From Rhodospirillales bacterium (GTDB taxonomy: Bacteria; Pseudomonadota; Alphaproteobacteria; Rhodospirillales; Casp-alpha2), in the NCBI GenBank assembly GCA_036393575.1, contig DASWGT010000086.1, forward strand, positions 3,141 through 67,140: a stretch of DNA of 64,000 nt, read 5' to 3'. The notes below the pieces were generated by a model. That model did not search any database. It was not told the origin of the DNA and saw only the letters and a list, made by a program, of their open reading frames with translations. Positions within the stretch are counted from its first letter, which is position 1, and the number at the start of each line of letters is the position of its first letter. This document shows positions 14,321 through 45,641 of the stretch, piece by piece. A program made the translations under genes and the position numbers.

Positions 14321-15463
14321 CTAACGCCCTGGCGGCGCGTTGCCGGGCAGACGTCGCGCCGGCGGCGTCGGATTCTTTTCGATGAAGTCGCGCGCCAGTG
14401 GCACCATCTTCGGGTGGTGCTGGGCCAACAGCGTCAGCGACTTTTCCATCAGCGCCTTGTCGCCGCCCCAAGCGCCGGCCTGTACGCCGAGGCGTAGCAC
14501 TTCGGCGTCGGCGGGTAGGATTTCGACCAACCGCTTCAGGTGCGGCACCTCGTCGGCATAGCGGCCGCCGAGGTGAAGCGTGATCGCTAGCGATAGCATT
14601 GAGTTGATGGCGTTCGGGTCCTGGTCGAGGGCGCGCCGGAACATCGCCAGCGAATCGTCGAACAACCGCTGGCGCCCGAAAACCTGTCCCGCCAAGTCCC
14701 ACAGTTGGCGGTTGCCGGACCGCCCGCACTGCTCGTTGATGAACGCGACATGCGATGGACCGAGCCGCTCGCGTGTCGCCTGCGCCGCGTCGAGGGCCTC
14801 CGAGCACTTGCGATACGCGATGCCGATCTGCTGGCTGGCCCCCAGGTGCTCCGGTCCCGATTGCGCCCTTAAGTCAGCGATCGCCCAGGAAGGGATCGCC
14901 TCGTGGCGACCCGAGCCGCCGGAGGCGACGACGCCGACCAGCCGGCCGATCTCGTCGACCAGCGCGCCGCCGGAATTGCCAGGCTGGCCATAGGCGTCGT
15001 GGTGCACCCGGGCCAACGGCTTGCCCTCCGCCGACCGTAGCAGCATCTGGCCGGGCTTGTAGACGCGCACGGCCTGGCGGCCGACGTCGGCGCCGATGGT
15101 GTAGAGGATGGAGTCGGGCCCGGCGACGGCCGTCGTCAGCCGGCTTTTGGCGGCGATCTCGGGCGCACGCAGCAGGATCAAATCGCCGGCGTAGGCCGAT
15201 GGCACCACGGTCGCCACCAGCTTCTTGCCGTTGGGCAGCATCACCTCGGCGCGCGCGTTGTCAGCGACGGCGTGGCGGTTGGTGACCAGCAGCCCGGGCT
15301 CGATTAGCACCGCGCTCGCCAGCGGATCGAAAGACGCGATCGCGAACACGCTTGCGGCGGCGTCGCACACCGGCTGCGGCGCCGCGCACGGCGCGTCGGC
15401 CGCCGCCGGCCGGGATGCCGCAACGGCGACCAGCAGCGCGACGACAAACCTGAACCCGGACAT
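14321..15463 (-). CDS. secreted trypsin-like (S1/DegP-type) serine protease with C-terminal TPR-like region
   Basis: 380 aa from ATG at 15463, with signal peptide MSGFRFVVALLVAVAASRPAAA. Motifs are LLVTNRHAV (His), DLILLR (Asp) and GNSGGALVD (Ser). The C-terminal part is helical-repeat (ALDQDPNAINSMLSLAITLHLGGRYADE). Confidence 0.75.
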   Translation of the reverse strand: MSGFRFVVALLVAVAASRPAAADAPCAAPQPVCDAAASVFAIASFDPLASAVLIEPGLLVTNRHAVADNARAEVMLPNGKKLVATVVPSAYAGDLILLRAPEIAAKSRLTTAVAGPDSILYTIGADVGRQAVRVYKPGQMLLRSAEGKPLARVHHDAYGQPGNSGGALVDEIGRLVGVVASGGSGRHEAIPSWAIADLRAQSGPEHLGASQQIGIAYRKCSEALDAAQATRERLGPSHVAFINEQCGRSGNRQLWDLAGQVFGRQRLFDDSLAMFRRALDQDPNAINSMLSLAITLHLGGRYADEVPHLKRLVEILPADAEVLRLGVQAGAWGGDKALMEKSLTLLAQHHPKMVPLARDFIEKNPTPPARRLPGNAPPGR

Positions 15464-36684: not shown

Positions 36685-37233
36685 CTAATCGCCGAGCGGC
36701 GCCTTGCCTTCCGGCACCTCGACCTCGAACGCGTTCAGCACCATCGAGATCAGGGTGTAGTAGCCGGCGACGGCGGTCAGCTCGACCACGCCTTCGGCGC
36801 CGAGAAGCTTGACCGCCTCGTCGTAGGTGGCATCGCTGACCCGGTGCTGCTTGTTGAGCTCGCGCACGAATGCATAAACGATCTTCTCGTCGGCATCCTT
36901 GAACTCGGGCGTCCGGCGCTCGGCGATGGCGTCGATGATCTTGGGATCGACGCCTTCCTTCTCGGCGAAGCCGCGGTGGATGTGCCATTCGAACTGCGCC
37001 GTCCAGAAGCGCGCCGTGATCATGATCGCGAGCTCGCGCAGCCGGCCCGGCAGCGGGCTTTCGAAGCGCAGGTAGGCGCCCAGCGCCTGCACCGGGTCGG
37101 CGACCCCGGGCGCGTGCAGCAGCGCGCCGAACGGCCCGCGTACGCCGCCGCGCGGGCTTGCCGCGATCTTGTCGTAGACCTGCTTCTGCTTGCCGGTGAG
37201 CTTCGCCGGATCGAGTTTCGGCAGTCGGGACAT
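36685..37233 (-). CDS. carboxymuconolactone decarboxylase (AhpD-like) family protein
   Basis: 182 aa. The pattern is CMD-family: LRELAIMITARFWTAQFEWHIH. Confidence 0.8.
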   Translation of the reverse strand: MSRLPKLDPAKLTGKQKQVYDKIAASPRGGVRGPFGALLHAPGVADPVQALGAYLRFESPLPGRLRELAIMITARFWTAQFEWHIHRGFAEKEGVDPKIIDAIAERRTPEFKDADEKIVYAFVRELNKQHRVSDATYDEAVKLLGAEGVVELTAVAGYYTLISMVLNAFEVEVPEGKAPLGD

Positions 37234-37257: not shown

Positions 37258-38061
37258 TCAGCCGATGCGGCAGCCGCGGCCGCCGTCTACCGGCAGCGCC
37301 ACGCCGGTGATGTAACCGGCCTCGTCGGAGGCGAGGAACAGCGCCGCATGGGCGACGTCCCAGGCGGTGCCCATGTGGCCCATCGGCACCTTGGCGTCGC
37401 GTTCTGCGGCGACCTCGGCGCGCGGCCGGCCCCACGCCTCGGCGCGGCGGTCGACCGCCATCGGCGTATCCATCAGGCCGGGCAGGATGACGTTGGCGCG
37501 GATGCCGTACTCGGCGTTCTGGATCGCCAGCTGCTCGGTCATCGCGATCATCGCCGACTTGGTCGCCTTGTAGGTAACCCACGGATAGGTCTCGACCGCC
37601 GCCATCGACGAGATCGACTGGATGGCGCCCTTCTTCTGCTTTCGCATCACTGGCAGCACGTGCTTGCAGCAGTAGACGAAGCCGCGCAGGTTCACCTGGA
37701 CGATGCAGTCGAAGGCCTCGGTGGTGATCTCGGTCACGGGCGCGTCCTTGCCCTCGACGCTGATGCCGACGTTGTAGTGCAGGATGTCGACGCGGCCCCA
37801 TTTCTTTACGCACGCCGCGATCGCCTCCTTGACCGACGCTTCGTCGGTGACGTCGGCCTCGCAAGCCTCGGCCGAGCCCTTTTCCTTCCGGATCATCGCC
37901 ACCGTCTCCTCGACCGACGGGAGGTCTTTGTTGACGGCGAACACGCGCGCCCCCTCGCGGGCGAACAGGATCGACGTGGCGCGGCCGTTGCCGATGGCCG
38001 GCGTCGAGCCCGGGCTTTGCCCGGCGCCGACGACGATGGCGATCTTGTCCTTGAGCCGCAT
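37258..38061 (-). CDS. SDR family oxidoreductase
   Basis: 267 aa from ATG 38061. It has the glycine-rich motif IVVGAGQSPG, NVG, and the catalytic YKATK. Confidence 0.9.
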   Translation of the reverse strand: MRLKDKIAIVVGAGQSPGSTPAIGNGRATSILFAREGARVFAVNKDLPSVEETVAMIRKEKGSAEACEADVTDEASVKEAIAACVKKWGRVDILHYNVGISVEGKDAPVTEITTEAFDCIVQVNLRGFVYCCKHVLPVMRKQKKGAIQSISSMAAVETYPWVTYKATKSAMIAMTEQLAIQNAEYGIRANVILPGLMDTPMAVDRRAEAWGRPRAEVAAERDAKVPMGHMGTAWDVAHAALFLASDEAGYITGVALPVDGGRGCRIG

Positions 38062-38201
38062 GATTTTCCTCCGTGCTGGCCGCGCGTGGCCGATTTTCCG
38101 CCCAAGGCGATAGCACGGATCGGGGAGCGGGGAAACAGCCGGCTGGCGGCCCAGGGGCATCGAAGGTTCCGCCATCGGACGCAAGCCGCTATCATGCGGC
38201 G

Positions 38202-38417
38202 ATGGGGACTATCCTGCTGCTCGGACTGGTCGGCGTGGTGGCGGTGCTCGGCGTCGAGTACGGGCTCTACCGGCGCGCCAAGAAGCGCGAACAGGAAGGC
38301 ATGTTCGACCAGGGCCTGCCGTTCATCGCCGGCCACCATCCGGGCGACGACATCGCCGCCGACCATCGCTCCCCCGACCACCACATCCACGGGCCCATGG
38401 ATCACCCCGGCGATTAA
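38202..38417 (+). CDS. hypothetical small membrane protein with His/Asp/Pro-rich tail
   Basis: 71 aa: one N-terminal TM helix (GTILLLGLVGVVAVLGV) followed by HHPGDDIAADHRSPDHHIHGPMDHPGD. It has no clear SD, and coding status is uncertain. Confidence 0.3.
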   Translation: MGTILLLGLVGVVAVLGVEYGLYRRAKKREQEGMFDQGLPFIAGHHPGDDIAADHRSPDHHIHGPMDHPGD

Positions 38418-38512: not shown

Positions 38513-41500
38513 ATGGTCGGTAGGAAGCGGCACCGCGCGCCAAAAGCGAAAGCCACCGGAACCGCAGGCAACCGGCGAAGCCGGCTGCGGCCTACGATCC
38601 GGCCGTCGAGCGCCGACGCATTGGTCCGCGAACGCCTCTACGACATCCTGGAATCGAGCCCAATCGGTGCCACCATCGTCCGCGACGACGGCTCATTCGA
38701 GTTCGCCAACTCGCGCATGGCCGAGATGCTGGGGCTGACCAAGCAGCAGTTCCTGGCGTCCCGCGCTCGCGATTTCTACGTCGACCCGCAGGAACGGGAC
38801 AGGATCGGCCGCAAGCTCCGCAAGGAAGGCCGGCTTCGCGACGTCCAGGCGTTGATGAAGGCCGCTGATGGCAGGCAATTCTGGATTCTGCTGTCGTTCG
38901 AGAAGACCGACGATGCCGACGGCACCCGCTATTTCGGCTGGGTCTATGACATCGACGAACAGAAGCGGGCGGAACATGAGCTGCGCGCCGCCAGCGACGC
39001 CAACGCGCTGCTCCGGCGGATCGCCGAGGCGGCCAACGAGGCGACGGTCGTCGATGATGCCGTCCAGGCGTGCCTCGACGCCGTTTGCGCCTACACGGGA
39101 TGGCCGGTGGGCCACGCGTTCGCCGTGAATTCGTATGGCGCGCTCGAATCCATCAAGGTCTGGCACCTGGATCGCCCCCGGCGCTACACGGCCTTCCGCC
39201 GGGTCAGCGAAGGCCGCGCGTTCGCCGGGCGGAAAGGCCTATGCGGCCGCGCGCTCGTCACCGGCAAGCCGGCGTGGAGCCGGGACTTCAGCAAGGACAA
39301 GACGTCGGAACGCCCGAAGTTGGCCAAGGACATTGGGGTCAAGGCGGGGTTTGCGTTTCCGGTCCTGATCGGCCGCACCGTGGTGGCGGTCCTCGAGTTC
39401 TTCTCCACCGCCGCCGCCGACCCGGACCGCACGCTGATGGACCTGATGGCACACGCGGGAACCCTGCTCGGCCGGGTCATCGAACGCAAACGCGCCGAAG
39501 CCACGCTCAGCCGTCAAACGGCCATCATCGCGACGACCCTGGAGGCCATGGACCAGGGCATCGTCATGGTCGACAAGTCCATGAAGGTCCTCGCCTCCAA
39601 CGACCGGTTCTTCGACATGTTCGGCTTGCGCCGGGGCAAGTACGGCGCCGGCTCCGACTTTCACGACGTCATCCGCGACTGGTTCAAGAAAACGGACTAC
39701 CCGAAGGGGCTACTCGAAAAAGCGATCGCCAACACGAAACGCCGGAGTTATTTCTCATTCGAGCAGCCGCAGCCCGATGGTCGCATCGTTGAGGCCCGCC
39801 ACAATCCCCTGAAGGGCGGCGGCTTCGTTCGCACCTTCACCGACATCACCGACCGCAAACGTGCGGAGGCCGAGCTGGCGGAGAAGGAGCGCCAGCTTTC
39901 GACCGCGCTGAACAGCATGTCGGACGGCATGTACATGCTGGACAAGGACCTCCGCTACGTCATGTACAACCGCCGAAATTTGGAACTACTGGAAATTCCG
40001 CCGGATATGGTCAGGATCGGCCGGCCGGTAAAGGAAGTCGTCTACGACCTAGCCAAGGCCGGTTTCTACGGCCCCGGCGACCCGAAGGCCCTGACCGAGC
40101 GGCGCATGAAGTGGCTCGCCAGCGAAGACCACACCGAATTGGAGCTCAAGACGCCCACGGGCCGCATCATCCACGTGCGCAAGGCCCCGTTGCGTGACGG
40201 TGGCGCCGTCGTCACGCTGACCGACATCACCCGGCGCAAGCATACCGAGAACGAACTCCGGCGCAGCGAGCGGCGCTACGAGACCATCGCCTCCAACATC
40301 CCCGGCGTCGTCTACCAGCGGGTCCGGCACCGGGACGGCTCATTCTCCTATCCGTACATCAGCCCGGGCGTGCGGGATCTTTACGAGCTCGAGCCACACG
40401 TGGTGATGGCGGATCCCAATATCATGCTGTCGGTGCTGCACCCGGAAGAAAAGGAGCGGTTCCACGCCTCCCTCGATGAATCGGCGAAAAACCTGACGCC
40501 GTGGAACCTTGAATTCCGCATCATCACCGCCACGGGCAAGCACAAGTGGATTCGCGGCTCGTCTCGCGTGCGTCGTGCACAGAACGGCGACATCATCTGG
40601 GTCGGCTTCCTTCTGGACATCACCAAGCGCCGTCATACTGAAATCGAGCTCATGCAAAAGACGGCGATGCTGGAAGCTACCCTCGAGAACATGGGCCAGG
40701 GCATCAGTCTGATCGACCGCGATCTCCGAATCACTGCCTTCAACAAGAAATTCCTCGACGTCCTTAGCTTCCCCGAGAACCTGTTCCGGCCCGGCTTCAC
40801 GCTCGAGAGTGCCTTCCGCTATAACGCTGAGCGCGGCGAATACGGCCCCGGTGACGTCGAGGAGCAGGTCCAACAGCGCCTCGAGTTGGCGCGGCGGTTC
40901 GAGCCCCACGTCTTCGAGCGCGAGCGTCCCGACGGATCGGTGATCGAAGTTCGCGGCAACCCGATGGCCGGCGGTGGGTTCGTCACCACCTACACTGACA
41001 TCACCCGCCGCAAGCAGGCCGAGAAGGAACTGCAGGAAGCGAAGGACGCCGCCGAGAACGCAAACACAGCGAAAAGCATGTTCCTGGCCAACATGAGCCA
41101 CGAACTCAGGACCCCGTTGAACGCCGTCATCGGTTACAGCGAGCTGTTGCTGGAAACGGCCGAGGACGAGGGCTGGGAAGAGGCGATCGCCGACCTGACC
41201 AAGATCCAGACATCCGGCAAGCACCTGTTGGCATTGATCAACAGCGTGTTGGATCTGTCCAAGATCGAGGCCGGCAAGATGGAGGTGTTTCTCGAAACCT
41301 TCGACGTCAAGCGGATGATCAACGAGGTGGCCGGCACCATCCAACCATTGGCCGCCCGCAAGTCGAATGCATTCGAGGTCCGCTGTCCCGACGGCGCCGG
41401 CACCATGCACAGCGACCTGACCAAGGTGCGCCAGAACCTGTTCAACCTTCTCTCCAACGCCTGCAAGTTCACCGACCACGGGAGGATCGTGCTCGACGTG

Positions 41501-43756
41501 TCGCGCCATGGGAAAGGCGGGAAGACACGCTACCGCTTCGCCGTTTCCGACACCGGTATCGGCATGTCGGAGGCCGAGGTCGCCACGGTTTTCGATGTCT
41601 TCGCCCAAGCCGGTGCCGGCACGTCGTCGCAATACGGCGGCACCGGGCTCGGGCTCGCCATAACCCGCCGATTCTGCGAGCTGCTCGGCGGCGACGTGAC
41701 GGTAACCAGTGAAAAGGGCAAGGGCTCGACCTTCGTCATCGAACTTCCCGCCGATCTCAAGGCCGCGACGATGCCGGCGCGCACCGTCGATGCCGACCAG
41801 GAACCGGGCGCCAGCGTCGCTGCGGGCACCGGCAAGCCGACCGTGCTGGTGATCGACGACGACGCCGTCGTCCGCGACCTGCTCCGCCGCTACCTGACGC
41901 GCAACGGCTATAACGCCGTACTCGCGGAAAGCGGGGAGGAGGGGATCCGCCTTGCCGGCGAGATGTCGCCCGACGCCATTACGCTCGACGTGCTGATGCC
42001 GCAGATGGACGGCTGGGCGGTCCTGAAGGCGCTGAAGGACGATCCGGCGGTCGCCGATATTCCCATCATCATGCTGACGATCATCGACGACAAGAACCTC
42101 GGATTCTCGCTCGGTGCGGCGGATTACCTGGCGAAACCGGTGGACCAAGCGAAACTGATTCAGATTCTCGAACGGCATTGCCCGAAGGCCGGCCGGGCGC
42201 GGGTGTTGGTGGTCGAGGACGAGGAATCGACCCGCCGCATGATGCGCCTGATCCTGGAGCGCGAGGGCTGCGTCGTCGCCGAAGCCGAGAACGGCCGCGT
42301 TGCCCTCGAGCGACTCGACGCAAGCCCGCCCGATCTGATCGTGCTCGACCTGATGATGCCCGAAATGGACGGCTTCGAGTTCCTGGCCGAGTGCGGCAAG
42401 AACGAGGCCTGGCGCAAGATCCCGATCGTCGTGATGACCGCCAAGAAGCTGACCGCCGCCGACCGACGGCGCCTGGAAGGGGGTGTGGCGCTGCTGCTGG
42501 AGAAGAGCGACGACGACCTGGATGCGCTGCTGGCGTTGCTCCGCGACATGATCGCCAAGCGGCCAGGACAGATGCCGGCGGCGGCCGCCCCCGCAGCGGC
42601 CGACCCGCCCTTATCGACGGCGAAAACGGCCGACGACCGGGCGGCTTCCCAAATTCCGGTCATCAAAGGCTCGGCGGCGGTCGCCGGCCGGCCGCTGACG
42701 ACCGGCCATGTTCTGGTGGTCGACGACCTGGAAACCAATCGCGAGCTGCTGAAGCGCCATCTCGTCCGCGACGGCCACACGGTGACCCTTGCCGACGGTG
42801 GCCGACAGGCGTTGGCGGTCGCCGACCGCGAGCCGTTCGACGTCATTCTCTTGGATTTGATGATGCCGGATCTGAACGGATTCGCCGTGCTATCCCGCCT
42901 CAAGGCCGACGGCCGGACCGAGAACATCCCGGTGATCATGATTTCGGCACTGAACGAGGAGCAGCACGCCATCCAATGCATCGAGGCCGGCGCCGAGGAC
43001 TATCTGACCAAGCCGTTCGATATCGTGCTGTTACGGGCACGTATCAACTCCTGTATCGAGCGCAAGCGCGCCCATGATCGCGAGGAGGTCTACCGGGTGC
43101 GCCTGGAGGCGGAAAAGGAAAAATCCGAGGACCTGCTGTTGAACATCCTGCCGCCGAAAATCGTCGATCGCATCAACGCCGGCGAGGAATTGATCGCCGA
43201 CCGGTTTGATAGCGTCAGCGTGCTGTTCTCGGACCTGGTCGGGTTCACCGAGATTTCGGCGTCGATGGGGCCGTCAGAGCTGGTCCATAGCCTCAACCGG
43301 CTGTTCTCCCGCTTCGATCTTCTGGCCAAGCAATTCGGAGTCGAGAAGGTGAAGACCATCGGCGATGCCTACATGGTGGTTGCCGGCCTGCCCGACCCGA
43401 AGCCCGATCACAAGGAGGCTTGCGCCGAAATGGCGCTCGGCATGATCAAGGTGCTCGACGAGATCAACCCGACCTTGGCCAAGCCGTTCGACATCCGGAT
43501 CGGCATCCACAGCGGTCCCGTGGTTGCCGGCATCATCGGCAAGCACAAGTTCGTCTACGACGTTTGGGGGAGCACGGTGAACATCGCCAGCCGCTTCGAA
43601 TCATACTGCATTCCCAACCACATTCACGTATCGGCCGAGCTGGCCGGCCCGCTGGCGGAAAAATTCGTTTTCGAATCCCGGGGATTGCTGAAAATGCGCG
43701 GCGTCGGCGAAATCGAGACATTCTTCCTCAAGGGTCGCAAGGGCGCCACCGCCTGA
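38513..43756 (+). CDS. PAS-GAF-multi-PAS hybrid histidine kinase fused to three receiver domains and a class III adenylate cyclase domain
   Basis: 1747 aa. The H-box is MSHELRTPLNAV, with an HATPase core (DTGIGM, GGTGLGLAI). The three REC domains contain DVLMPQMDG, DLMMPEMDG and DLMMPDLNG. The C-terminal cyclase shows FSDLVGFT, KTIGDAYMVVAG, YDVWGSTVNIASRFES; the Lys/Asp specificity pair suggests ATP. Confidence 0.9.
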   Translation: MVGRKRHRAPKAKATGTAGNRRSRLRPTIRPSSADALVRERLYDILESSPIGATIVRDDGSFEFANSRMAEMLGLTKQQFLASRARDFYVDPQERDRIGRKLRKEGRLRDVQALMKAADGRQFWILLSFEKTDDADGTRYFGWVYDIDEQKRAEHELRAASDANALLRRIAEAANEATVVDDAVQACLDAVCAYTGWPVGHAFAVNSYGALESIKVWHLDRPRRYTAFRRVSEGRAFAGRKGLCGRALVTGKPAWSRDFSKDKTSERPKLAKDIGVKAGFAFPVLIGRTVVAVLEFFSTAAADPDRTLMDLMAHAGTLLGRVIERKRAEATLSRQTAIIATTLEAMDQGIVMVDKSMKVLASNDRFFDMFGLRRGKYGAGSDFHDVIRDWFKKTDYPKGLLEKAIANTKRRSYFSFEQPQPDGRIVEARHNPLKGGGFVRTFTDITDRKRAEAELAEKERQLSTALNSMSDGMYMLDKDLRYVMYNRRNLELLEIPPDMVRIGRPVKEVVYDLAKAGFYGPGDPKALTERRMKWLASEDHTELELKTPTGRIIHVRKAPLRDGGAVVTLTDITRRKHTENELRRSERRYETIASNIPGVVYQRVRHRDGSFSYPYISPGVRDLYELEPHVVMADPNIMLSVLHPEEKERFHASLDESAKNLTPWNLEFRIITATGKHKWIRGSSRVRRAQNGDIIWVGFLLDITKRRHTEIELMQKTAMLEATLENMGQGISLIDRDLRITAFNKKFLDVLSFPENLFRPGFTLESAFRYNAERGEYGPGDVEEQVQQRLELARRFEPHVFERERPDGSVIEVRGNPMAGGGFVTTYTDITRRKQAEKELQEAKDAAENANTAKSMFLANMSHELRTPLNAVIGYSELLLETAEDEGWEEAIADLTKIQTSGKHLLALINSVLDLSKIEAGKMEVFLETFDVKRMINEVAGTIQPLAARKSNAFEVRCPDGAGTMHSDLTKVRQNLFNLLSNACKFTDHGRIVLDVSRHGKGGKTRYRFAVSDTGIGMSEAEVATVFDVFAQAGAGTSSQYGGTGLGLAITRRFCELLGGDVTVTSEKGKGSTFVIELPADLKAATMPARTVDADQEPGASVAAGTGKPTVLVIDDDAVVRDLLRRYLTRNGYNAVLAESGEEGIRLAGEMSPDAITLDVLMPQMDGWAVLKALKDDPAVADIPIIMLTIIDDKNLGFSLGAADYLAKPVDQAKLIQILERHCPKAGRARVLVVEDEESTRRMMRLILEREGCVVAEAENGRVALERLDASPPDLIVLDLMMPEMDGFEFLAECGKNEAWRKIPIVVMTAKKLTAADRRRLEGGVALLLEKSDDDLDALLALLRDMIAKRPGQMPAAAAPAAADPPLSTAKTADDRAASQIPVIKGSAAVAGRPLTTGHVLVVDDLETNRELLKRHLVRDGHTVTLADGGRQALAVADREPFDVILLDLMMPDLNGFAVLSRLKADGRTENIPVIMISALNEEQHAIQCIEAGAEDYLTKPFDIVLLRARINSCIERKRAHDREEVYRVRLEAEKEKSEDLLLNILPPKIVDRINAGEELIADRFDSVSVLFSDLVGFTEISASMGPSELVHSLNRLFSRFDLLAKQFGVEKVKTIGDAYMVVAGLPDPKPDHKEACAEMALGMIKVLDEINPTLAKPFDIRIGIHSGPVVAGIIGKHKFVYDVWGSTVNIASRFESYCIPNHIHVSAELAGPLAEKFVFESRGLLKMRGVGEIETFFLKGRKGATA

Positions 43757-43781: not shown

Positions 43782-44177
43782 TCACGATTCGGCGGGGAAA
43801 AATCCCGTCACGGCAGCACGCAAGGCGTCGAGCGTGAACGGCTTCGCCAGGATGGCGTCGGCGCCGATCCTTTCCGCCGCCTTCAGCGCCGCCTCGGGGG
43901 TCATCTCGGAGTAGCCCGCCGAGGTGGCGAGAATCTTTGCTTCGGGGCGCATCCGGCGCATCTCCTGGATGCCTTTGATCCCGCCCATCCCGGCCATGAA
44001 GATGTCGGTGATGACGAGCGCATAATCCAGCCGCTCGAAATCCTTGAGCGCATCTTCCATGTTGAGCGCCATGGTCACCCGGAAGCCTTCGCGCGCCAGT
44101 GCCCGGCTGAGGATGTCGACGGTGTTCTTATCGTCTTCGACGACCAGCACATTTCGAATGTCCTTGGCTCCCAGCAT
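43782..44177 (-). CDS. single-domain CheY-like response regulator (GMGGI subtype)
   Basis: 131 aa from ATG 44177, which is preceded by AAGGAA; TTG 44192 is an alternative start. Motifs are VLVVEDDKN, VITDIFMAGMGGIKGI, TSAG and KPF. Confidence 0.8.
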   Translation of the reverse strand: MLGAKDIRNVLVVEDDKNTVDILSRALAREGFRVTMALNMEDALKDFERLDYALVITDIFMAGMGGIKGIQEMRRMRPEAKILATSAGYSEMTPEAALKAAERIGADAILAKPFTLDALRAAVTGFFPAES

Positions 44178-44188
44178 CGTTCGTTCCT

Positions 44189-44563
44189 TCAACTTTTCGA
44201 TTGTGGCAGCAATTTCTGCATTTTGTCGAGCAGTCGCGACAATTCGACCGGCTTGGTATCATAGTCGTCGCACCCCGCCGCCAATGCCTTCTCCCGGTCT
44301 CCGGTCATGGCATGGGCGGTGAGCGCGATGATCGGGATGGCGGCAGTTTCGGCCGCCGATTTCAGCCGCCGCGCCGTCTCCCAGCCGTCGATCCCGGGCA
44401 AGCCCAAGTCCATCAGGATGAGGTCGGGGCCTTCCCGGGTGGCAGTGCTGATGCCCGTTTCGCCGTCGGCGGCGAGCACCAGATCGAAGCCGCGACGCCG
44501 GAGCCGCCGCGCCAGCATATCGCGGTTCATCTCGTTGTCCTCGATGACCAAGACCTTGGCCAT
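44189..44563 (-). CDS. single-domain CheY-like response regulator (canonical)
   Basis: 124 aa. Motifs are VLVIEDNEMNRD, LILMDLGLPGIDGWE, ALTAHAM and KPV. Confidence 0.85.
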   Translation of the reverse strand: MAKVLVIEDNEMNRDMLARRLRRRGFDLVLAADGETGISTATREGPDLILMDLGLPGIDGWETARRLKSAAETAAIPIIALTAHAMTGDREKALAAGCDDYDTKPVELSRLLDKMQKLLPQSKS

Positions 44564-44703
44564 GTATTCCCCCGGAAGGCCCGCCACACGGGCGGCGGGC
44601 GTCAACGGCGATCGCGCCGACGAAAGCGAGAATCGCGGGCCGGCCAAGTATAAAGGGAAACAGCACGATCGGAGAAGATTTCGAATCCGACCGCAGACCG
44701 AAG

Positions 44704-45105
44704 TTACGTCCTGGGCCGCCCCCTTTCCAGCAGCCGTATCATGGCGAGGCGCAGTTCGGCGAGCGGGAAGGGTTTAGGCAAGATGGCGTCGGCCCCGACC
44801 TTGATCGCCGTCTGCAACGCGGCTGCTGCCGACATGTCGGCAAAACCGGCGGAGACGGCGATGATCGGCACCTCGGGTCGCGCCTGGCGCATGGCAATGA
44901 TGGCGTTGATCCCGCCCATGCCCTTCATGAACACGTCGGTGATTACCAGGTCGTATTTTCGGTCCTGGAACATGGCGAGCCCGTCCTCACCGCTGTTTAC
45001 GATGTCGACGTGGTAGCCGACCTTGGTGATGACACGGGCGATTAGCGCCGCGTGGGATTCCACGTCGTCGATGACCAGTACGCTCAACTGCGTCGTGGCC
45101 GGCAA
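44704..45105 (-). CDS. single-domain CheY-like response regulator (GMGGI subtype), tandem paralogue 1
   Basis: 133 aa if it starts at TTG 45105, which is preceded by AGGGGGG with a 5-nt spacer; TTG 45087 is an alternative start. Motifs are VLVIDDVES, VITDVFMKGMGGINAI, VSAG and KPF. The track ORF extension to 45381 is spurious. Confidence 0.7.
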   Translation of the reverse strand: MPATTQLSVLVIDDVESHAALIARVITKVGYHVDIVNSGEDGLAMFQDRKYDLVITDVFMKGMGGINAIIAMRQARPEVPIIAVSAGFADMSAAAALQTAIKVGADAILPKPFPLAELRLAMIRLLERGRPRT

Positions 45106-45203
45106 AGATGCCCCCCTGATCCAGCGGCGCCGCCAATCATAGCAGAATTGACCGGGCCATCGGTGAATCCCGCGAAGATTTCGTATCTGACCGGCACCAG
45201 CGG

Positions 45204-45641
45204 TCACTTCCCGGGATGTCGGCCTTCCAGGAGCCGCGCCATGGTGAGGCGCAGCTCGGCGAGTGGGAACGGCTTCGGCAAGATAGCGTCGGCCCCGACC
45301 TCGCGCGCCGTCTTCAACGCCGCTTCCGCCGACATGTCGGAAAAACCGGCGGAGATGGCGATGATCGACACGTCCGGCCACGATTGACGCATGCCGGCAA
45401 TGGCCTTGATCCCACCCATGCCCTCCATGAATACGTCGGTAATCACCAAGTCGTACTTCCGGTCCCGGAACTTGGCGAGCCCATCCTCTGCACGGTGGAC
45501 GACGTCCACGTGATGGCCATTCTTGGCGATGACGCGGGAGATCAGCGAGGCGTGGGATTCCTCGTCGTCGATCACCAGTACGCTTAATGGCGATGTGGCC
45601 GGCAAGAATATCCCCCTAGACCCTGCGGCGGCGGGGATCAT
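45204..45641 (-). CDS. single-domain CheY-like response regulator (GMGGI subtype), tandem paralogue 2
   Basis: 145 aa from ATG 45641, or 133 aa from TTG 45605, which is homologous to the start proposed for paralogue 1. Motifs are VLVIDDEES, VITDVFMEGMGGIKAI, ISAG and KPF. Confidence 0.75.
   Translation of the reverse strand: MIPAAAGSRGIFLPATSPLSVLVIDDEESHASLISRVIAKNGHHVDVVHRAEDGLAKFRDRKYDLVITDVFMEGMGGIKAIAGMRQSWPDVSIIAISAGFSDMSAEAALKTAREVGADAILPKPFPLAELRLTMARLLEGRHPGK

Follow-up and report, generated by a model that had tools for sequence, protein, structure and literature searches.

To our knowledge, two-component control of cyclic AMP (cAMP) synthesis has been documented for very few enzymes, essentially CyaC. 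According to Kasahara and Ohmori 1999 (via PMC3009899), CyaC of Spirulina (Arthrospira) platensis and of Anabaena sp. PCC 7120 combines in one chain a GAF domain, a histidine kinase and a receiver placed right before a C-terminal class III cyclase, and intramolecular His-to-Asp transfer onto this pre-cyclase receiver activates the enzyme. Two further proteins are relevant. RodK of Myxococcus xanthus is a soluble hybrid kinase that carries three receivers (PMC3868531, citing Rasmussen 2006 and Wegener-Feldbrugge 2009). In Dictyostelium ACR, a single chain runs from a kinase module through two receivers to a class III cyclase at the C-terminus (PMC3009899). Here we describe a gene with a similar set of parts, located at positions 38513 to 43756 (forward strand) of a 64,000-nucleotide stretch (hereafter the window) of a Rhodospirillales bacterium (GenBank assembly GCA_036393575.1, contig DASWGT010000086.1, positions 3,141 to 67,140). 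Its product, P0001, is a soluble hybrid histidine kinase/receiver/predicted adenylate cyclase of 1747 amino acids (aa), and with it an already known architecture appears in a rare fused form; it is not a new type of system.

P0001 shares with CyaC the GAF domain and the order kinase, proximal receiver and C-terminal cyclase within one chain. CyaC has been described as a class IIIb enzyme with a receiver at its N-terminus and only one more following the kinase, whereas the cyclase of P0001 is IIIa-like and its N-terminus lacks a receiver; five PAS modules, and a pair of receivers between the kinase and the pre-cyclase receiver, set P0001 further apart. Judged from its sequence, it is not a CyaC orthologue, and the activating transfer described for CyaC is for P0001 only proposed. 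RodK can be likened to it by architecture but has no enzymatic output domain. With mycobacterial Cya/Rv1625c and the mammalian membrane adenylate cyclases (PDB entries 4p2f, 5o5k, 1yk9 and 8buz), P0001 shares the catalytic domain, the transducer element and six canonical residues; in those enzymes six-helix membrane domains provide the drive, whereas P0001 would be driven by a receiver. The first-pass annotation of this DNA, made from the letters alone, had called the architecture unusual. This holds for the single-chain form, which is rare, but the kind was already known from CyaC and ACR, and receiver-cyclases are very common.

The gene is a single open reading frame (ORF) of 1747 codons with no internal stop, preceded by a Shine-Dalgarno-like AGGGGA 5-6 nucleotides (nt) upstream of its ATG. 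Pfam searches with the full-length protein and with in-frame segments of it confirmed that kinase, receivers and cyclase reside in one polypeptide, as the annotation had proposed, and placed the domains within a few tens of bases of its boundaries. The N-terminal PAS domain (38630..38968, residues 40-152; Pfam PAS_9, PAS_8, PAS_4 and PAS) contains no Cys and is therefore not a LOV domain. It is followed by a GAF domain (39014..39484, residues 168-324, with the GAF_2 start at 168/180; E = 1.5e-11) and by four PAS modules (39539..41023), namely PAS_7 at residues 343-452 (E = 5e-27) and 466-579 (E = 4e-31), PAS_3 at 615-699 (E = 2e-15) and PAS_7 at 724-837 (E = 6e-44). The kinase comprises a HisKA (DHp) domain (41069..41275, residues 853-921), whose MSHELRTP H-box, correctly spotted in the first reading, holds the phospho-acceptor His863, and an HATPase_c domain (41414..41755, residues 968-1081) with the N box (N982) and the G1 (DTGIGM) and G2 (GGTGLGL) boxes. 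Together with receivers that keep the acidic pocket, phospho-Asp, Thr/Ser and Lys, these features identify P0001 as a hybrid histidine kinase. No transmembrane domain, Hpt or second HisKA was detected in the 1747-aa protein (Pfam scan for the latter two). NCBIfam matches to TorS, BarA, ArcB and others all stayed under the equivalog cut-offs, so that P0001 falls into no named orthologous group.

Copies from five other assemblies (P0002, P0125-P0128) are each 1747 aa long and differ from P0001 at 1-5 residues. Because the same length recurs in all of them, the ORF is not a frameshift artefact, and its description as uninterrupted stands. Members of this 90% cluster are labelled Rhodospirillales. 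Relatives at 86-88% identity have an identical architecture, and throughout the homologues P0003-P0008 (63-88% identity) the layout, the linker motif, the catalytic residues and all the motifs quoted here are conserved.

The domain search recovered the three predicted receivers, all complete, as well as the cyclase. REC1 (41843..42169, residues 1111-1219, E = 2e-25) has the acidic pocket D1115/D1116, phospho-Asp D1159 (LDVLMP), T1189, Y1205 and K1208; REC2 (42203..42511, residues 1231-1333, E = 8e-24) has E1235/D1236, D1279 (LDLMMP), T1309 and K1331, carries Leu at the aromatic switch position and lacks the KP; and REC3 (42710..43045, residues 1400-1511, E = 2e-30) has D1404/D1405, D1448 (LDLMMP), S1478, Y1497 and K1500. 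REC2 and REC3 are separated by an Ala/Pro-rich linker (42512..42709, residues 1334-1399), which ends in the conserved motif GSAAVAGR..TGH. A decayed Hpt in this linker was considered and rejected: the linker consists of about 66 Ala/Pro-rich residues, varies in length among relatives and gives no Pfam match of any kind, Hpt and DHp included.

The annotation had treated these domains as one triple-receiver array gating the cyclase, and this view was not sustained, since the receivers belong to three different orthologous types. In pairwise comparisons, REC1 (termed here the RECA type) shares 50-61% identity with the first receiver in kinase-REC-REC proteins of Nitrospirota, Planctomycetota and other groups (P0009, P0025, P0043), REC2 (the RECB type) shares 51-57% with the second receiver in these cassettes, and REC3, of response-regulator type, shares 59-63% with the receivers of the small REC-cyclases L001 and L004. 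REC3 shares only 38-39% identity with REC1 and with dsB, a stand-alone receiver encoded next to the gene, and scored lower still against REC2. Tandem duplication of the receivers was discarded, each being nearer to a different orthologous group than to the other two. The stretch is best read as a composite of a common kinase-REC-REC cassette and a response-regulator cyclase of the mammalian/mycobacterial type. The kinase-RECA-RECB cassette is indeed very common, accounting for nearly all of the best 150 matches among 1.84 billion representative proteins (53-58% identity). It also occurs with other third modules, such as a receiver-PP2C phosphatase (P0025), a DivK-like (dsB-type) receiver (P0043), a second RECA-RECB pair (P0009) or a tandem DHp with a receiver (P0017), and in P0233 a REC-cyclase comes directly after the kinase.

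The catalytic domain (43196..43735, residues 1562-1741; Guanylate_cyc, PF00211, E = 5e-60) matches profile positions 3-183 of 183 with 197-203 bits against a cut-off of 21.9. The motifs singled out in the first reading are all in place, i.e. FSDLVGF (D1574), KTIGDAYM (K1614, D1618), YDVWG (D1683) and VNIASR (N1690, R1694), and K1614/D1683 support its assignment of a substrate pair of the ATP type. We take D1574 and D1618 to be the metal ligands, K1614 and D1683 the substrate-specifying pair, and N1690 and R1694 the transition-state residues, following the roles of their counterparts in class III cyclases. All six align with the corresponding residues of AC8 C1/C2 and are kept across the clade. 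The Glu/Cys pattern of guanylate cyclases is absent from this domain, and the protein is predicted to be a class III, IIIa-like cyclase of adenylate type. Because one chain supplies metal Asp residues of the C1 type together with a Lys/Asp/Asn/Arg set of the C2 type, the cyclase should act as a homodimer with two ATP sites. The best PDB matches of the catalytic domain and about 30 preceding residues were AC8, AC9, AC5 and mycobacterial Cya/Rv1625c (E = 6.5e-73 to 4e-51), whereas the CyaC structures 1wc0/1wc1 came last among the 43 matches (E = 8e-13, against 6.5e-73 for AC8).

The PDB alignments, including that with Cya of M. intracellulare (5o5k), begin at residue 1531 and span the segment LLLNILPP. 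This segment belongs to the region between REC3 and the catalytic domain, which comprises the last receiver helix and the cyclase-transducer element (43022..43177). Residues 1390-1747 were modelled with AlphaFold2 from 39 relatives (mean predicted local distance difference test score 92.9). In this model, alpha5 of REC3 runs on as a single 42-residue helix (1504-1545), followed by a short helix (LLLNILPPKIV, residues 1548-1555) and then by the cyclase. The modelled layout agrees with the arrangement of coiled-coil linker and cyclase-transducer element described in PMC5995499.

REC-cyclases related to the REC3-cyclase part of P0001 are abundant, and species genomes yielded at least 594 confirmed matches. 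Of the 80 loci that were fetched, at least 21 have adjacent genes for a sensor-kinase-RECA-RECB protein, a dsB-type receiver of about 125 aa and a REC-cyclase, nearly always in this order and on one strand. These loci come from Alphaproteobacteria, Cyanobacteria, Verrucomicrobiota and Armatimonadota, and they represent Rhizobium, Sinorhizobium, Phyllobacterium, Pseudaminobacter, Methylocystis, Tropicimonas, Dongiaceae, Geminicoccaceae, Microcoleus, Verrucomicrobiota and Chthonomonadaceae. At most of the non-cyanobacterial loci the cyclase protein starts with a HisKA domain unaccompanied by an ATPase, and alignment of these proteins revealed two DHp-like hairpins, the second with an invariant RHDLRTP H-box. 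Spo0B and ChpT are DHp-type histidine phosphotransferases, and we infer that the tandem ATPase-less DHp may be a built-in module of the same type. The resulting family of about 520-560 aa (two ATPase-less DHp hairpins with the H-box His only in the second, a receiver and a class IIIa cyclase) includes L001, L002, L005, L009, L011-L019, L021-L025, L027, L031 and L045, as well as P0146 and P0165. Its genes usually come after a kinase-REC-REC gene and a DivK-like receiver gene. No specific or experimental study of the rhizobial cassette or of this family was found in the literature.

Compared with the unfused cassette (e.g. L001, L002, L009, L016, L017), the window shows 50-61% identity in RECA/RECB, 55-59% in REC3-cyclase and 52-75% in dsB. 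The unfused system consists of three proteins and has a DHp-type second His ahead of the terminal receiver, whereas P0001 is one chain without that module; the DivK-like receiver, which is the middle gene of the unfused cassette, is in the window part of a convergent cluster with three extra receivers. The parts found in the window, a fusion and a convergent receiver cluster, thus belong to the kinase/DivK-like receiver/REC-cyclase cassette. On its contig, the fused homologue P0007 is accompanied by an unfused paralogous set (L093, 7387-11205), which encodes an 801-aa PAS_7-kinase-REC-REC protein, a 125-aa receiver and a 348-aa REC-cyclase without DHp. A different solution is seen in an uncultured bacterium (L057, 4443-9041), where a 1533-aa protein with the order MASE3-HisKA-HATPase-REC-REC-Hpt-REC-cyclase holds a full His-Asp-His-Asp relay in one chain; this single-chain form arose independently of the P0001 clade.

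The origin of the fusion was traced with a 61-row tree, calculated from the REC-cyclase portions in a quick IQ-TREE run (support by the Shimodaira-Hasegawa-like approximate likelihood ratio test, SH-aLRT). The seven fused proteins (P0001, P0003-P0008) formed a single clade (support 93), which was sister to the unfused P0165 and P0146 (support 100) and, together with them, nested in an alphaproteobacterial tandem-DHp clade (support 96). This topology points to a single origin of the fused clade. Both sister proteins retain the tandem DHp with the H-box His, and since the fused proteins are nested among such relatives, the DHp was lost in the fused clade. P0146 has in front of its receiver the motif GSAA(I/V)AGR, which also occurs at the end of the P0001 linker. 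Comparison thus identifies the gene as a fusion of cassette genes 1 and 3, joined from RECB to the cyclase receiver through the Ala/Pro linker, with loss of the tandem DHp.

The fused form is rare, because only two of the best 150 clusters from the search of 1.84 billion representatives match the whole span from kinase to cyclase, a count whose scope leaves out more distant fusions such as L057. Kinase cassette and REC-cyclase have been joined more than once (L057, P0017, P0233). A further candidate, P0016, was not accepted as an independent fusion and is probably a frameshift artefact (pseudo-fusion): at residues ~700-960, between the kinase and the tandem-DHp-REC-cyclase, it has an Arg/Gly/Ala-rich stretch in place of RECA-RECB. 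Such stretches are typical of out-of-frame translation of high-GC DNA.

We consider it probable that direct transfer from His863 to D1448 of REC3 switches cAMP synthesis, with REC1, REC2 and the free receivers buffering phosphate. According to this proposal, a cytoplasmic, dimeric enzyme would sense an intracellular cue through its five PAS domains and one GAF domain and turn it into cAMP. The kinase would autophosphorylate His863, and the phosphoryl group would pass from its own DHp to Asp1448, a transfer favoured by tethering as in RodK and CyaC. Phosphorylation of REC3 is expected to alter its alpha4-beta5-alpha5 face, from which alpha5 extends as a long, presumably coiled-coil helix into the transducer element; the two catalytic domains of the homodimer would be repositioned and conversion of ATP to cAMP switched, most likely on. 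REC1, REC2 and the four free receivers dsA-dsD would compete for, store or return phosphate, acting as shunts, as buffers or in feedback, and in this way set both the gain and the timing of the cAMP signal.

Several observations are consistent with this proposal, among them the intact catalytic residues, the adjacency of the same parts in the unfused cassette and the unbroken alpha5 helix of the model. In CyaC, phosphorylation of the proximal receiver by the intrinsic kinase activates the enzyme (PMC3009899), and in RodK it is the third receiver that the kinase selectively serves, tethering overriding the kinetic preference (PMC3868531). Furthermore, the H-box helices of the P0001 kinase and of the lost DHp are alike (HELRTP..GY.E.LLE), so that REC3 could plausibly dock on the kinase DHp. 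Other points weigh against it. Most relatives interpose a second His between the kinase and the terminal receiver (the tandem DHp, or the Hpt of L057), and for this reason REC3-type receivers there may not be direct substrates of the kinase DHp. At least one Hpt is encoded elsewhere in the host genome, the receivers of Dictyostelium ACR hardly matter for activity (PMC3009899), and the sign of the regulation, activation or inhibition, is not readable from sequence.

A more specific evolutionary suggestion is put forward tentatively. The fusion may have short-circuited a four-step relay, leaving His863 as both the autokinase site and the donor to the terminal receiver, while REC1, REC2 and the DivK-like and GMGGI-type receivers (described below) were kept as a phosphate buffer or timer.

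In the main alternative, the four steps may have been preserved, with phosphate passing from His863 to REC1, REC2 or the DivK-like receiver, then to an unlinked Hpt (e.g. that on contig C253) and finally to REC3. We regard this route as rather unlikely, although it is in line with the second His module carried by the nearest unfused relatives and by L057, with the presence of one Hpt in the genome and with the absence from REC2 of the aromatic switch residue, a loss discussed for intermediary receivers (PMC9981736), in which it is frequent. Neither P0001 nor its conserved neighbourhoods showed a second phospho-His module between two receivers, and no Hpt or DHp-only module was found in the neighbourhood within the window or at the corresponding loci L091-L093. 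The cyanobacterial cassettes L004, L006 and L008 and the split L093 system also do without such a module, and dropping a built-in module in order to rely on a distant one would be unparsimonious. The phosphorelay suggested in the first-pass annotation, taken as a His-Asp-His-Asp chain, is therefore not shown inside the protein, while its broader notion of two-component control of cAMP remains a sensible reading.

It is improbable that the kinase of P0001 mainly serves REC1, REC2 and the four free receivers, with REC3 being phosphorylated by other kinases or acetyl phosphate and the fusion merely co-localising or co-expressing the parts. The host genome does encode many hybrid kinases and 14 cyclase domains, and receiver-cyclases often have no neighbouring kinase (e.g. 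L026-L040). However, the adjacency of cassette and REC-cyclase in at least 21 genomes across phyla, and their repeated fusion noted above, indicate a direct functional link. Still less credit can be given to a scaffold role, in which kinase and receivers chiefly hold the cyclase dimer together and phosphotransfer is not critical. ACR needs its HisKA domain to dimerise and can do without the kinase and receiver Asp residues, but it has neither the phospho-His nor the receiver switch residues (PMC3009899). The residues lost in ACR are exactly those kept across the P0001 clade, namely His863, the ATP boxes, the three phospho-Asp pockets and the REC1/REC3 switch residues, which makes an ACR-like role unlikely. 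Finally, an assembly or frameshift artefact, for which P0016 offers a database precedent, or a guanylate instead of an adenylate cyclase, is very improbable in view of six near-identical full-length copies from separate assemblies, the homologues with the same layout and linker motif, the adenylate-type Lys/Asp pair and the missing Glu/Cys pattern.

The cassette of kinase-REC-REC, DivK-like receiver and DHp-REC-class IIIa cyclase is spread over rhizobia, methanotrophs, cyanobacteria and Verrucomicrobiota. The fused, DHp-less P0001 could serve as a compact single-protein model for the partition of phosphate among tethered and free receivers, and it could reveal how a mammalian-type cyclase comes under receiver control by way of the transducer element, a coupling that may interest designers of cAMP switches. 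If true, the short-circuit suggestion would provide a natural case of relay rewiring through domain fusion in a widespread cAMP cassette. No general principle is altered by the finding.

Four genes for stand-alone receivers converge on the P0001 gene from the reverse strand (43782-45641). The first, dsA (43782..44177, 131 aa, GMGGI type), has its stop 25 nt from the stop of P0001; a consensus scan found no terminator between the two genes. It is followed by dsB (44189..44563, 124 aa), which is similar to DivK and PleD-REC1 and corresponds to the middle gene of the unfused cassette, and by the paralogues dsC (44704..45105, 133 aa, with a TTG start at 45105 preceded by AGGGGGG) and dsD (45204..45641, 145 aa), which share 75% identity. 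The motifs TD(I/V)FM.GMGGI and SAG(Y/F) are common to dsA, dsC and dsD. An identity of these GMGGI receivers with the FATGUY type (Sma0114/SdrG) was considered and found unsupported, the respective structures not being among the 60 best dsA PDB matches listed. A cluster of 2-4 receiver genes is kept behind the fused gene in L091, L092 and L093, in all of which a dsA orthologue follows it.

On the other side, 95 nt upstream of the P0001 gene, a 71-aa ORF (38202-38417, forward strand) encodes one transmembrane helix and a His/Asp-rich tail. ORFs of similar size hold the same position in L091 (7700-7912) and L092 (7689-7907; 70 and 72 aa, respectively), so that this is probably a real small membrane protein, although it matches no Pfam family. 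Further upstream, on the reverse strand, lie genes for a 182-aa protein with a weak carboxymuconolactone decarboxylase (CMD) match (36685-37233) and for a short-chain dehydrogenase (37258-38184), both also found beside the fused gene in L091 and L092. The neighbouring genes are metabolic ones with no evident link.

The host genome is a metagenome-assembled genome of 2.6 Mb that is about 76% complete. It contains at least 14 class III cyclase domains and 10 cyclic nucleotide monophosphate (cNMP)-binding domains; given these numbers in an incomplete genome, P0001 would be one cAMP input among many. Its cyclase stands out with a profile score of 203 bits, whereas none of the other cyclase domains of this genome exceeds 88. 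Contig C253 carries the Hpt ORF at 2737-2940 and a cyclase gene at 14914-15453.

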